Origin: Escherichia phage vB_EcoM_ESCO47
Sequence record: OM386662.1
Reading direction: 5' to 3' (one strand)
DNA: 64,000 nucleotides
The position numbers and the translations under genes were made by a program. The notes beneath the pieces were generated by a model. The model had not been told where the DNA came from, searched no databases, and saw nothing but the letters and a program-made list of their open reading frames with translations. Shown one piece after another: positions 19,419 through 25,686 of the stretch. The stretch's first letter is position 1, and each line of letters opens with the position of its first letter.

Positions 19419-19493
19419 GGCCCTTTAGCTCAATGGGAGAGCTGTCAGCTCATAACTGATAGGTAGCTGGATCGAAACCAGCAAGGGTCACCA
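19419..19493 (+). tRNA. tRNA with CAU anticodon (Met or lysidine-modified Ile)
   Basis: Manual cloverleaf: acceptor GGCCCTT/AAGGGTC, D-arm GCTC..GAGC, anticodon loop CTCATAA, T-stem GCTGG/CCAGC, 3' CCA encoded. Confidence 0.75.
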
Positions 19494-19497
19494 ATTT

Positions 19498-19569
19498 GGA
19501 TGCATAGCTCAGTGGTAGAGCAGTTGACTGTTAATCAATTGGTCCATGGTTCGAATCCATGTGTGTCCG
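19498..19569 (+). tRNA. tRNA-Asn (GUU anticodon)
   Basis: Manual cloverleaf: D-loop AGTGGTA, anticodon loop CTGTTAA, T-arm CATGG-TTCGAAT-CCATG; acceptor with G-U pairs; no encoded CCA. Confidence 0.7.
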
Positions 19570-19576
19570 CAAATTA

Positions 19577-19652
19577 CGAGGCATAGCTCAGAAGGAAGAG
19601 CAAGGACCTTCTAAGTCCTAGGTCGTAGGTTCGATCCCTACTGTCTCGACCA
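19577..19652 (+). tRNA. tRNA-Arg (UCU anticodon)
   Basis: Manual cloverleaf: acceptor CGAGGCA/TGTCTCG, anticodon loop CTTCTAA, T-loop TTCGATC, CCA encoded; T4 also carries tRNA-Arg(UCU). Confidence 0.75.
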
Positions 19653-21930: not shown

Positions 21931-22533
21931 ATGCGAAACCAAAATAATGATATTGACTCAATGTTCGAAGAGTTCCGAGATAAGGTAAATCCACCTACGT
22001 CTTTAGTTGATTCATTACGATATGTTGCAACCGGACGTAAATGGTACTGGTCGTCTTCTTATGAGACCACCGAGAAAACGGCTAGCCATAGCAGAAAATC
22101 TTTATTAGCCCCAGGTATTATGATTCATGATATCGGAGCTATTGCTAAACTAGTTGCAGACCATGATATTAGATTCACTGATTTCGTTGCTCCTACGTGG
22201 TCTGTTTGTTGTTTAAACACTGAATGGGAATATATCAGCGAACGCTCTGAAGATTATTATGGTTTTAGAGATAAGCTTCTGAGGTCTAATATGTTTTATA
22301 TCGATACAGAAGTTCTAGTCGATAATAAAAAATATTACTTTACGTTAATCATCGATTCTGAAACTATGTATGAAGGCAAGCCTTTGCTTAAAAGAGTTGA
22401 TGCTTTAAGTGCTATTGATGCGCTTTATGAAACTATGGTTGTTAGTCCTAATTTCACTAACAATTTAATCCTTGAGCAATTTATTATGGAATGTAGAGAA
22501 TATGTCAAAGCCAACCCTGTACATGCCAATTAA
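21931..22533 (+). CDS. Hypothetical protein
   Basis: Start set at MRNQNND after AAGGAG RBS; follows terminator hairpin. Confidence 0.5.
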   Translation: MRNQNNDIDSMFEEFRDKVNPPTSLVDSLRYVATGRKWYWSSSYETTEKTASHSRKSLLAPGIMIHDIGAIAKLVADHDIRFTDFVAPTWSVCCLNTEWEYISERSEDYYGFRDKLLRSNMFYIDTEVLVDNKKYYFTLIIDSETMYEGKPLLKRVDALSAIDALYETMVVSPNFTNNLILEQFIMECREYVKANPVHAN

Positions 22534-22897
22534 GCCCTGGGCATATGAATACAAGCGTAAATTAATCCCAAATGAAGTACTATTTGGCCCTATTTTAGCT
22601 TTAGCATTTTTAATCTTTATGATTATAGGAGCCGTTTTAGATTCTAGTGAAGTTATATCGTCTGATGCAGCATTTTCATTAATGTTCGTCGCACCACTTA
22701 TTGTACCGTTTTTATTAATGCCTATTAACTGGATGGGATATTGGTACCAAGGACGTCATCACAGAGCCAGATTAAGAGAATGGAAAGTTCAGTGCGCAAA
22801 AGCCCAAGCTCAGTATGATGAAGCTGTTAAAAAATACGAATACAATGAAGCCATGGAATTCGTTAAGGAAATAAGATGCAAAAGCCTCAACTCTTAA
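22502..22897 (+). CDS. Small membrane protein, FIKECR-tail family
   Basis: Start MSKPTLYMP after conserved junction GGAATGTAGAGAATATG; two TM segments; C-terminal EFVKEIRCK. Confidence 0.45.
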   Translation: MSKPTLYMPIKPWAYEYKRKLIPNEVLFGPILALAFLIFMIIGAVLDSSEVISSDAAFSLMFVAPLIVPFLLMPINWMGYWYQGRHHRARLREWKVQCAKAQAQYDEAVKKYEYNEAMEFVKEIRCKSLNS

Positions 22898-23235
22898 CCG
22901 TATGGCCTTCTCTTGGTGAGAACATTCTAATTTTTATTATGAGTATTGGCATGGGATTTGCCTTTGGATTAGTTGGATTTCTTATTGACAGCGTTGTGTT
23001 AGGATTTATAGGGAACACTGGTGGATTCACAGACCAATGGCAGGACTTACGGTATACCCAAGCCTTTGCATCCATCGCATCATTTTGTACTGTAGTCTAT
23101 TTTTACTACGATTTTATAAACCACAACAAGAAAAATAAAAAGGTTTACGCTTCTCAAATGATTAGTTATAATGAACTCCTAGCTAGACGTGAAAATGAAA
23201 CAATCGAAAACTTTATTAAGGAATGTAGAAAATGA
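22876..23235 (+). CDS. Small membrane protein, FIKECR-tail family
   Basis: AAGGA RBS; TM segments; ends ENFIKECRK. Confidence 0.5.
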   Translation: MQKPQLLTVWPSLGENILIFIMSIGMGFAFGLVGFLIDSVVLGFIGNTGGFTDQWQDLRYTQAFASIASFCTVVYFYYDFINHNKKNKKVYASQMISYNELLARRENETIENFIKECRK

Positions 23236-23537
23236 GTAAGATTATTGAAATTAAAGTACCAGAGTTTAATGATGCCAAATCCGCTTCAGATGCAATTTAT
23301 AAACTTCTGAATCAAGCTGAACGTATCGAAGAAGAAGCAACAAAGATCGCAGACCAATATGCCGTATCATTTTCTGTAGGTGATTATGGTAGCGGTCGTA
23401 CTTATTATCCTAAGGGTGAAATCGTATCCCAGTGGATGAAAAATGAAATTGAAAATAATGGTGGCGATGTTAAGCGTGAAGGTAATGGTTACGTTATTAC
23501 TGAAGGTGCTTGGGTTTCGTCTTCTGCGTTGTGCTAA
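23232..23537 (+). CDS. Hypothetical protein, GWVSSSxxC-tail paralog 1
   Basis: ATGA coupling; C-terminus GAWVSSSALC shared with the next two genes. Confidence 0.5.
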   Translation: MSKIIEIKVPEFNDAKSASDAIYKLLNQAERIEEEATKIADQYAVSFSVGDYGSGRTYYPKGEIVSQWMKNEIENNGGDVKREGNGYVITEGAWVSSSALC

Positions 23538-23546
23538 GGAATCACT

Positions 23547-23819
23547 ATGTCTAAAGAACAAACCGAACTGGCTGAAGCTGTAGCAAAAATCTATGCATCT
23601 ATTGAGGCAGCCAAAGAAATTGCTGATAAACAAAACACCACGTTTAATTTGTATCCGGCATATGGTATGGGCGGAACCTATCATTCACCAGGTTATCTTA
23701 AAGCCGACCTTGAACATCATACTAAACATGGTAACCCTGAATGGGCTGACGTTTACCAATATGACTACAACCTGAGCCTTGAAGATGGCGGTTGGGTTGC
23801 ATCTTCTCACACTTGCTAA
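23547..23819 (+). CDS. Hypothetical protein, GWVSSSxxC-tail paralog 2
   Basis: AAGGA RBS; C-terminus GGWVASSHTC. Confidence 0.5.
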   Translation: MSKEQTELAEAVAKIYASIEAAKEIADKQNTTFNLYPAYGMGGTYHSPGYLKADLEHHTKHGNPEWADVYQYDYNLSLEDGGWVASSHTC

Positions 23820-23828
23820 GGAAACCAT

Positions 23829-24026
23829 ATGTCTCGTGAATTAGATTGTGCTGTACGTACGGCAGTAGCTGCTCTGGAAAACCTGTTCCAAATTGCAACA
23901 GAAGAACGCGAAGAAGTTACATTATGGATTGAAGATAACGCAGGTCTGAATCTCCAGGACGCGATTTCATTATCCCACAATAGTATTACTGTTCAAGGCT
24001 GGGTATCATCTAGTTATTCTTGCTAA
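23829..24026 (+). CDS. Hypothetical protein, GWVSSSxxC-tail paralog 3
   Basis: AAGGA RBS; C-terminus QGWVSSSYSC. Confidence 0.5.
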   Translation: MSRELDCAVRTAVAALENLFQIATEEREEVTLWIEDNAGLNLQDAISLSHNSITVQGWVSSSYSC

Positions 24027-24030
24027 AACA

Positions 24031-24072
24031 GTTTACAACAAGATAGGGCTATGTTATAGTAGTCCTATCAAA
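24031..24072 (+). promoter_or_regulatory. T4-type early promoter
   Basis: GTTTAC ... TGTTATAGT ... CCTATCAA. Confidence 0.55.
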
Positions 24073-24088
24073 TTAAATGGAGTCCACA

Positions 24089-24328
24089 ATGATTTATTAC
24101 GAAAGTATCGGAACCGAAGTAGTTGCTAAAACTATTACTCGTGAAAAGTTTGCAAAGATATTCGATATGCGTTATAAAAAATCTGAACACAAAGGCATCC
24201 GATTCAAAGATGCGCACTGTACAATTTGCCCTTATAATGAAGACATAAATGGTACAATCGTTCCATTGGTAGAGGCTTCACATGATGACCTCTGGGATGA
24301 ATATAATATCGCATGTCGTGAAATTTAA
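24089..24328 (+). CDS. Hypothetical protein
   Basis: Start set at MIYYESIG after early promoter. Confidence 0.45.
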   Translation: MIYYESIGTEVVAKTITREKFAKIFDMRYKKSEHKGIRFKDAHCTICPYNEDINGTIVPLVEASHDDLWDEYNIACREI

Positions 24329-24353: not shown

Positions 24354-25310
24354 ATGATGTTAGTTATTGGTTCTCGTGCACTTCACTATCACGGTCTTAT
24401 TGATTCTAGCGCTATTAAAAATAGTGATTGGGACTTTATTGCGGATCAAGGTTCTTGGAATGCATTCAAAAATCAAATGATGGGTGTATATGTTCACCAA
24501 GATAACCCTGATGTCCAAGTTTTCAAATGCTTCCATAATGGACGCGAAACTCATTTTGAAGCATATATTGTTCCGGCAATCACTAATGTCCGTGAATTAG
24601 TCGGTGAACTCACTCCTGAAGATTTCACGTCTTCTTATGACCTTTTAAAATACGCCAGGAAAAATTTGACTAAAGACCGTTTGAACGGGTTTTACTGGGC
24701 AACTCCTGAGATATGTCTTGCAATTAAGATGTCTCATCGTTTCAAGAAAAATAATCCATTCTTTTTAAAGACTATGAACCATATTCAGTATCTTCGTGGT
24801 AAAGGTGTTACACCGAACGATGAACTTACTGAAATTATGCTGAAACGCCAGAAAGAAACCTTGAATTATGCTCACCCAGTTCTTGACACTTCTAAAAGTG
24901 CGTTCTTTAAAGATGACATCTATACATATGACCATGATACTATTCATGAAGCCATTGCACTAACAGACCGTCCAGCGTATACATTTTATATGAAAGACGG
25001 TTCTGAAGTCATGACCTCACGCGAGAAGTTCGAATTGTTACCAGAAATGGTCAAATTGGCCGGTGTATACGAAGAATCATGTGTACTAGCATTAGAACGT
25101 TCTCAGATTCCTAATGACTTTAAAATTAACCCTGAAGCCAGTTTCATGATGGCATTGGAAAAAGTCTGTACAAGCATCACCTCCGGTTGGTTCCGTGAGT
25201 ATGCCTGGGAAAACTACAGCAAAGTAGTAAGTATGTACCAAAGCTTAGGACATGATGATTACATCAAACGTTTCAAACAAAATTTCCATATGGTAAAACC
25301 TTTCAAATAA
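24354..25310 (+). CDS. Predicted nucleotidyltransferase-fold protein
   Basis: N-terminal GSRALHYHG...SDWDFIAD fits the minimal nucleotidyltransferase GS...DxD signature; GAGGA RBS. Confidence 0.5.
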   Translation: MMLVIGSRALHYHGLIDSSAIKNSDWDFIADQGSWNAFKNQMMGVYVHQDNPDVQVFKCFHNGRETHFEAYIVPAITNVRELVGELTPEDFTSSYDLLKYARKNLTKDRLNGFYWATPEICLAIKMSHRFKKNNPFFLKTMNHIQYLRGKGVTPNDELTEIMLKRQKETLNYAHPVLDTSKSAFFKDDIYTYDHDTIHEAIALTDRPAYTFYMKDGSEVMTSREKFELLPEMVKLAGVYEESCVLALERSQIPNDFKINPEASFMMALEKVCTSITSGWFREYAWENYSKVVSMYQSLGHDDYIKRFKQNFHMVKPFK

Positions 25311-25322
25311 CTTCACAAAACT

Positions 25323-25363
25323 GTTTACAACATGATAGGACTATGTTATAGTAGTCCTATTAA
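25323..25363 (+). promoter_or_regulatory. T4-type early promoter
   Basis: GTTTAC ... TGTTATAGT ... CCTATTAA. Confidence 0.55.
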
Positions 25364-25380
25364 AACATGAGGAGAATATT

Positions 25381-25686
25381 ATGAAATTAGGCGAAACCAA
25401 CCGAATTGGCCTTTTAACAATATTTGCATCACCTTTTTACGCAGCCCTTTCTGTTGCAGTATTACAAAAGGCTTACGATATGGATGGTGTTCCTGGTTTT
25501 GTATTCTTATCACCGTTTTTATTATTCGTCGGAGCATTGTTATTATATGCAACTACCGGTTTAGACCATAATGTCTGGGTCAATTATAAATGTAAATTGT
25601 CTGAAGAAGAACACGCAGAAGCTCGTAAAAAAACTATTGAATCTACCAATCTAGAAAATTTCATTAAAGAATGTCGAGGAAAATAA
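25381..25686 (+). CDS. Small membrane protein, FIKECR-tail family
   Basis: GAGGAG RBS; TM segments; ends ENFIKECRGK. Confidence 0.5.
   Translation: MKLGETNRIGLLTIFASPFYAALSVAVLQKAYDMDGVPGFVFLSPFLLFVGALLLYATTGLDHNVWVNYKCKLSEEEHAEARKKTIESTNLENFIKECRGK

Follow-up and report, generated by a model that had tools for sequence, protein, structure and literature searches.

Tandem phage genes for small proteins with a shared Cys-terminal tail travel with a predicted MenT/ANT-like nucleotidyltransferase

We analysed a 64,000-nucleotide stretch of Escherichia phage vB_EcoM_ESCO47 (OM386662.1; hereafter the window), in which three tandem plus-strand open reading frames (ORFs), P1, P2 and P3, encode small proteins that end in GAWVSSSALC, GGWVASSHTC and QGWVSSSYSC. 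Downstream of them, on the same strand, lies a gene for a predicted Pol-beta-superfamily nucleotidyltransferase (NTase). Since the two are linked in both forward and reverse tests, among phages whose other neighbours are unrelated, we conclude that the small-protein genes and the large gene are a single module, carried by phages and moving together. The pairing is probably functional. The best overall explanation, to which we give slightly better than an even chance, is a two-part module in which the tail engages the NTase as an acceptor and one of its serines is nucleotidylylated.

The initial annotation had described three consecutive genes of 101, 90 and 65 amino acids with these endings, and we verified the coordinates and tails exactly. 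The array and its partner gene are laid out as follows:

23232..23537, plus strand: P1, 101-amino-acid Cys-tail protein of the RB69ORF139c type, phrog_899
23505..23534, plus strand: P1 tail GAWVSSSALC, class A motif G-x-W-x-[SA]-S-S-x-x-C-COOH
23547..23819, plus strand: P2, 90-amino-acid Cys-tail protein, phrog_899, carries a YGMGGTY loop
23787..23816, plus strand: P2 tail GGWVASSHTC
23829..24026, plus strand: P3, 65-amino-acid Cys-tail protein of the RB69ORF136c type, phrog_4882
23994..24023, plus strand: P3 tail QGWVSSSYSC
24354..25310, plus strand: 318-amino-acid DUF7277 + DUF7275 protein, RB69ORF134c, predicted Pol-beta-superfamily NTase

Gaps of 9 nucleotides, each with an AAGGA Shine-Dalgarno site, separate P1, P2 and P3. 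The ATG of P1 overlaps the TGA stop of the upstream e.3-like gene (ATGA, 23232-23235), which suggests that P1 is translationally coupled to this membrane-protein gene. Minus-strand ORFs that overlap the array (for example 23367-23684) were taken as shadows of the plus-strand genes, and their homologs were not sought. Among the 723 stop-to-stop ORFs of at least 35 amino acids in the window, only P1-P3 end in W.[SA]SS..C or W..S.C, where amino-acid composition predicts 7e-5 such endings. Because the tail serine codons vary by copy (tcg tct tct, gca tct tct and tca tct agt), the tail is conserved at the protein level, by selection on the protein. A DNA repeat maintained by recombination was ruled out, since 73% identity at the P1/P2 junctions is limited to 51 nucleotides, the codons are not the same, and Aeromonas, Pseudomonas and Acinetobacter phages retain the motif.

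P1 and P2 are paralogs along their whole length. They align over 76 residues with 29% identity (E 6e-7), share the motif IAD..SF.(V/L)..YG.G.TY, and have a common layout of a long N-terminal helix ending ..IAD.., a strand xSFx[VL], a loop YG.G.TY(Y)P and the tail. Both match phrog_899 (E 1.8e-22 and 4.4e-18, respectively) and the hidden Markov model (HMM) of the Cys-tail family (E 4.6e-23 and 1.2e-24). P3 instead matches phrog_4882 (E 7.7e-37), reaches only E 0.11 against the family HMM, and does not have the YG.G.TY loop that P1 and P2 carry together with the helix and the ..IAD..SF.L strand; neither PHROG has an assigned function. When P3 was compared with the family profile by hhalign, only its last 15 residues aligned significantly (probability 91%, E 9e-7), while jackhmmer seeded with P3 reached one YGMGGTY member. 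Judged by sequence, P3 has the tail in common with the family, and if its head is homologous, the relationship is beyond detection. The earlier proposal that the heads have diverged needs correcting for P1 and P2, whose heads can still be aligned and have not merely drifted apart; for P3 the tail gives the only significant match. None of the three proteins matched a Pfam, NCBIfam or PADLOC family.

With a profile built from nine sequences, an exhaustive HMMER search returned 578 clusters at 50% identity with E<=1e-3, and 60 with E<=1e-10. Nearly all matches are 65-140 amino acids long, with alignments that extend to the final residue, and this rules out a common low-complexity ending, the possibility that a profile search for family signal was meant to check. 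The family is acidic, with a median isoelectric point of 4.5 and a net charge of -8. P1-P3 are members of this large, phage-restricted family of small acidic cytoplasmic proteins, which combine a long N-terminal helix, a small beta-sheet and an obligatory tail. By the alignments, the tail is common to subfamilies between whose heads homology can no longer be demonstrated. The idea first proposed, that diversified heads carry a conserved C-terminal signal, is thus supported both by at least 578 clusters and by the tail's presence on heads that cannot be aligned.

To describe the tail we used 197 non-redundant members that adjoin NTase genes. Trp at position -7 and Cys at position 0 are found in 138 of them, with Ser at -4 in all 138 and at -3 in 129; a shorter ending, W-x-x-S-x-C, accounts for 40 of the 197. 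The resulting definition (W-x-[SA]-S-S-x-x-C or W-x-x-S-x-C at the very end of a 60-150-amino-acid protein) describes P1-P3 and 178 of the 197 module members, and the elements that appear common to all members are the Trp, a Ser three residues later and the terminal Cys. Cys is the final residue in 153 of 167 family sequences examined, and a small subclade, about 4% of members, has one residue beyond it (...SST..C[NSR]). In 93 of 151 members the terminal Cys is the sole Cys, which rules out a single-chain zinc or disulfide site. Some members carry additional internal W-x-x-S-S-C copies that look like repeated acceptor sites. Other T4-like phages have up to five or six tandem paralog types, two of which are missing from the window; one of these ends ...GFW[FY]SSSM(S/QN)C, and the other ends ...IW[YQH]PSSC and has an internal DW.NSSC copy.

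Individual members also come and go. RB69ORF139c, which is P1 in the RB69 reference, has been cut short to 71 amino acids and ends ...QWYEK, and the P2 ortholog of phage mar005P1 is truncated to 75, so single paralogs are lost or frameshifted in some phages. In JS98, a 69-amino-acid member (...GEGFWFSSSMSC; HMM E 1e-13) lies between gp127 and gp126 at 2708-2917 of locus L003, about 65283-65492 of the NC_010105 record, and is missing from the reference annotation.

The AlphaFold2 (AF2) model of P1 is a compact fold with a predicted local distance difference test score (pLDDT) of 91.8. Tail residues 91-100 form its last beta-strand, which includes W94-V-S, and a short helix (pLDDT about 88). The tail is thus predicted to be an integral part of the fold rather than a floppy appendage. 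P1 contains no His, and the Cys-tail family profile found no sequence match in the PDB.

We examined linkage in both directions. In each of the four other T4-like genera examined, a gene encoding about 318 amino acids comes after the array, and the same gene follows a family member in Pseudomonas phiPsa397 (99 kb), an Erwinia jumbo phage (366 kb) and Acinetobacter Acj61, with phmmer E values across those phages of 1e-60 to 1e-172. The forward test drew on the 80 best IMG/VR loci with a gene for a relative of the 318-amino-acid protein (38-97% identity); at least one Cys-tail member is present in 77 (72 by HMM at E<0.01). One apparent exception has ...EDEWESSESSEC directly upstream, which the pattern missed, and another is cut at the contig end; at locus L031, a tRNA cluster stands in place of the array and the NTase is intact. 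Full 10-kb flanks were available for 64 of the loci. Of the 200 member ORFs in these, 197 lie within 3.5 kb directly upstream of the gene on the same strand, and copy number per locus ranges from 0 to 5 (mode 5). For the reverse test, loci were drawn without reference to the large gene, by scanning for a degenerate DNA pattern that encodes YGMGGTY. This gave 73 loci, 44 of them with a true member. The large gene follows downstream, in the same orientation, in 33 of the 44, and for each of the other 11 less than 1.5 kb of downstream sequence was available. In the window itself, P3 ends at 24026 and the NTase gene begins at 24354, on the same strand.

Outside the pair, the neighbours differ completely between phage groups: ribonucleotide reductase in phiPsa397, polynucleotide kinase in the Erwinia jumbo phage, gp41/DprA in Acj61, and e.3/e.2 in the T4-likes. 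Among one genome each for 185,579 bacterial and archaeal species, the large gene occurs on only five contigs of metagenome-assembled genomes (MAGs), and Cys-tail members lie upstream of it in all five. Two of these contigs (167 and 383 kb) are plausibly phage sequence that entered the bins. Neither family nor their linkage is described in the literature we searched, although papers beyond that search are possible.

The 318-amino-acid protein scores 97.3 bits against DUF7277 and 261.5 bits against DUF7275 (gathering cut-off 27). Its family comprises 2,210 database proteins and 733 phage records and ranges over Straboviridae, Aeromonas, Acinetobacter, Otagovirus, Phapecoctavirus, Ralstonia, Acidovorax, rV5-like and jumbo phages. 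Searches for known relatives gave no PDB sequence match, no NCBIfam model, no PADLOC match, no DUF1814/AbiEii HMM match and no Pfam family at E<=10 besides DUF7275 and DUF7277, and the literature searched held no characterised member or paper. Across 42 diverse homologs, G6-S7, D25-x-D27, E69, K125, H128, H194-D195, H198, E240-E241, E248-R249 and most of KVCTSITSGWFRE are invariant. We predict that the partner is an NTase of the MenT/ANT-like group because G-S...D-x-D is the catalytic signature of the superfamily; the hG[GS] ... [DE]h[DE]h motif and a third carboxylate are both present on an NTase fold. The invariant K125 and D193/D195 are candidates for MenT motifs III (Lys) and IV (Asp). Structural relatives of the NTase, with their scores, are:

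MenT1 toxin: 10.0 (145 residues aligned)
ANT(2'')/AadB: 8.5
TglT/MenT3: 8.4
MenT4: 7.6
TM1012: 7.5
H. pylori putative nucleotidyltransferase (4ok0): 7.3
LnuA: 7.1

Three distant, shorter homologs, from Gordonia, Streptomyces and Vibrio phages, have no upstream Cys-tail gene. They keep the catalytic motifs and have neither Cys272 nor the GWFREYAWEN helix, both of which are invariant in the partnered clade. These cases, only three in number, hint that the helix may be a partner-binding surface.

How might the two halves of the module work together? Because the tail is the sole element common to all head types, and the NTase the sole constant neighbour, we propose that the tail is the element by which each paralog, whatever its head, would engage the single NTase. 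The heads (1-6 per genome) would have diversified for different tasks, probably early in infection. The tail would enter the NTase active site as an acceptor, where a tail serine hydroxyl would be nucleotidylylated. The terminal Cys would aid binding through its thiolate or carboxylate, either to a metal or to the enzyme's clade-specific Cys272; alternatively, it might react further with the activated serine. Modification would then switch the small proteins on. Serine nucleotidylylation of the tail specifically seems to us the most likely of several mechanisms, although the assignment is tentative. We favour an acceptor-substrate role because NTases of this fold give nucleoside monophosphates (NMPs) to hydroxyls, because the tail's invariants are two Ser and one Cys, and because some members hold internal copies of the motif. 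ANT and Lnu enzymes nucleotidylylate antibiotics (aminoglycosides and lincosamides). MenT enzymes transfer NMP to tRNA 3' ends (PMC10435456), and MntA AMPylates its partner protein HepT (PMC7641770, PMC11586414). The initial annotation had left a choice between targeting, modification and interaction signals. A likely partner, the downstream NTase, has now been found, and no feature supports capsid targeting, secretion or lipidation. The idea of an effector family, and of complexes with host proteins, gains no support from this analysis.

A bolder form of the proposal is more doubtful again. The module could be a new phage post-translational modification system, in which a MenT-like NTase nucleotidylylates a serine of W-x-x-S...Cys-COOH tails and so yields covalently activated effectors. 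Elimination followed by attack of the terminal Cys might then give a C-terminal thioether ring, or extension might give a protein-linked oligonucleotide, and the activated effectors would be used early in infection by phages of many Gram-negative hosts, for example against host defences.

Several observations weigh against tail modification by the NTase. The MenT toxins, its closest structural relatives, act on tRNA and not on protein (PMC10435456), and a small gene upstream of an NTase is a toxin-antitoxin-like gene order. The tail is predicted to lie within the fold, as last strand and short helix, and may not be free to enter an active site. The roughly 4% of members with a residue after the Cys suggest that a free Cys carboxylate would not be absolutely required. 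NTase genes without a nearby member occur at L031 and L048/L049, and in the T4-likes the NTase gene is set apart from the array by an additional ORF and a promoter/hairpin.

The small proteins could instead be antitoxin-like inhibitors, which we consider unlikely. The acidic proteins would bind a MenT/AbiEii-type NTase that modifies tRNA 3' ends and is toxic or serves host shut-off, and the tail would plug its active site, with the thiolate and carboxylate of the terminal Cys chelating the catalytic metals in a manner analogous to the blocking of MenT1 by MenA1. Gene order, acidity and the MenA1 precedent all fit, and MenAT1 and AbiE (DUF1814) share both the NTase fold and the gene order of the phage module. 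Yet one inhibitor would suffice, where phages carry up to 5-6 paralogs with heads diverged past recognition. Some paralogs are pseudogenised, and at L031 the NTase is intact although no member lies near it; an unguarded enzyme is therefore not obviously lethal. Nor do the sequences point to a relationship: the phage enzyme is not similar in sequence to MenAT1/AbiE enzymes and gave no DUF1814 HMM or PADLOC match, and its partners are unrelated to MenA1, MenA3 (or MenA generally) and AbiEi, forming arrays of 1-6 paralogs with an invariant W..SS..C-COOH tail. Inhibition also leaves the internal, non-terminal motif copies unexplained. Finally, MenAT1 and AbiE are found in bacteria, whereas the phage module occurs in virulent phages only, with none in bacterial chromosomes, and an addiction module has no clear role in such phages.

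Less likely still, the small proteins could be specificity adaptors, with the tail docking each on the NTase and each head recruiting a different host or phage target, whether protein, tRNA or small molecule. One enzyme for 1-6 diversified heads suits this arrangement, as do the invariant tail and an equally invariant enzyme helix (KVCTSITSGWFREYAWEN) that is missing in the partner-less homologs. Paralog arrays in the hyperplastic regions of T4-type phages are typical of arms-race functions, which counts in the same direction. However, a docking peptide has no obvious need for invariant nucleophiles (two Ser and one Cys) or for ending at Cys, and the heads are very small, about 50-90 amino acids.

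That the two genes are not coupled at all is improbable: the tail would be no more than a mark of how a small fold is built (Trp core, Ser cap) and adjacency an inherited synteny, the proteins acting alone, for example as ligand sponges or host-protein binders, and although the P1 model places W94-V-S in the last beta-strand with high confidence and a vs.4 homolog within one array means that the region may be a general accessory-gene island, the same order and strand are kept in phage groups that share no other neighbours, synteny alone does not explain 197 of 200 members within 3.5 kb upstream, and a fold signature does not explain the ending at Cys, the tail's retention on P3-type and W-x-x-S-x-C-type heads, or the internal copies.

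For tail modification by a dedicated enzyme, the type VII toxin-antitoxin system HEPN-MNT (HepT/MntA) offers a precedent: a two-gene module in which a minimal NTase (oligo)AMPylates a small partner on a hydroxyl side chain (PMC7641770, PMC11586414). HepT is a HEPN RNase with an Rx4-6H motif and is modified on Tyr, whereas P1 contains no His and is not HEPN, and P1-P3 gave no HEPN Pfam match. Compared with the minimal MntA, the phage enzyme is a protein of 318 amino acids with a large conserved helical domain. ANT(2'')/AadB, LnuA and JHP933-type enzymes differ in having antibiotics as substrates, no dedicated protein partner and no sequence similarity to the phage enzyme.

Two further systems resemble the small proteins. 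The T4 internal proteins are likewise encoded in hyperplastic-region arrays of diversified small proteins, and carry one short terminal signal read by a single phage machine: an N-terminal MKTYQEFI..E that is cleaved by the prohead protease and directs packaging. What the two groups have in common is one terminal signal placed on bodies that have diversified; the Cys-tail signal differs in its C-terminal position, its final Cys and its linkage to an NTase. AviCys and lanthionine rings use S-x-x-C-COOH spacing. This spacing is also present in all three window tails and is not diagnostic alone. The pearlin scaffold TglA-Cys undergoes its enzymatic chemistry at a C-terminal Cys (PMC9016710). A Pfam scan of the flanking genes found no LanB/C/M/D/KC/L, HFCD decarboxylase, PEARL or TglHI-type enzymes. 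In contrast to lanthipeptide and pearlin precursors, P1 is predicted to be a folded domain and not a leader-core peptide, and the associated enzyme is an NTase.

The window belongs to an RB69-like T4-type phage, 96-97% identical over this stretch to JK45, APCEc01, SF and many others. The array corresponds to RB69ORF139c through RB69ORF136c, in a hyperplastic accessory region between e.3 and e.2 homologs, with tRNA-Met, tRNA-Asn and tRNA-Arg genes 3.6 kb upstream. Homologs of P1-P3 are annotated 'hypothetical' in the records, and some carry other labels. We treated as spurious the labels 'tail completion protein' and 'helicase' for P2 homologs, 'prohead assembly scaffold protein' for an NTase homolog and 'sulfurtransferase' for the e.4 homolog in JK phages. 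JK45 is filed under Tequatrovirus although its locus is RB69-like, a likely mis-annotation. Other features around the array are:

23144..23172, plus strand: promoter-like site inside the e.3-like gene, upstream of P1, from a consensus scan; a near-identical phage annotates a T4 middle promoter here
24025..24070, plus strand: early-promoter-like site plus hairpin after P3 (TTTACA-17-TATAGT), copy 1 of a 46-nucleotide repeat; annotated terminator in a near-identical phage
24077..24328, plus strand: 83-amino-acid ORF, phrog_3723, RB69ORF135c, between the array and the NTase gene
25317..25362, plus strand: copy 2 of the 46-nucleotide promoter/hairpin repeat, just past the NTase gene

The two copies of this direct repeat, AAAAC.GTTTACAAC..GATAGG.CTATGTTATAGTAGTCCTAT, bracket a cassette of the 83-amino-acid ORF and the NTase gene. 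Promoter-early stem-loop elements are reported to mediate the shuffling of modules in T4-type phages, and the 46-nucleotide repeat resembles them. The 83-amino-acid ORF has a conserved AHC.(I/D)(C/D)PY motif and is present in JS98 and Q7622 and absent from PM2, F48 and the non-T4-like phages; this patchy presence marks it as accessory rather than a core part of the module.

On either side of the array lie members of a second paralog family. They are small predicted membrane proteins (T4 e.3/e.4-like) with a basic tail, ..F[IV]K[EN]xR(G)K, as in IENFIKECRK and LENFIKECRGK, and a 22-nucleotide DNA repeat lies at two of the basic tails (22480-22501 and 23212-23233). Members are found at:

Window: 22472-22897, 22876-23235 and 25381-25686
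L003: 1560-1913
L004: 732-1097
L005: 766-1131 and 2227-2511
L006: 607-1653

Near the NTase gene, several phages carry tRNA genes, polynucleotide kinase or RNA ligase, with the tRNA cluster of L031 immediately adjacent to it, and the NTase may have a tRNA-related role. These neighbours are at:

L008: 3191-5977
L192: 938-1810
L191: 5850-8066
L031: 8500-9570
Window: 19419-19652

In Acj61 and Vibrio K412, the NTase gene is near genes for salvage of nicotinamide adenine dinucleotide (NAMPT, Prs). The vs.4 homolog lies inside the Cys-tail array of Escherichia phage nieznany (Phapecoctavirus; L194, 3138-3413). T4 Vs.4 is a cyclic-nucleotide sponge against the cyclic-oligonucleotide-based anti-phage signalling system (CBASS), and its homolog's position may point to a setting of anti-defence genes.

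The small proteins and the enzyme are both widespread, with at least 578 small-protein clusters and 2,210 enzyme proteins that are annotated 'hypothetical' or mislabelled, and some of the carrier phages are therapy candidates. Their linkage joins two orphan families into one testable system, with clear handles in a 10-residue tail bearing three candidate reactive residues and an enzyme with an obvious predicted catalytic triad. Should the small proteins be inhibitors or adaptors, this would be the first case in which virulent phages are shown to use a MenT-like NTase system and not to be its targets. If the enzyme does modify the tails, the module would represent a new kind of protein modification in phage biology and a new class of tagged effectors.

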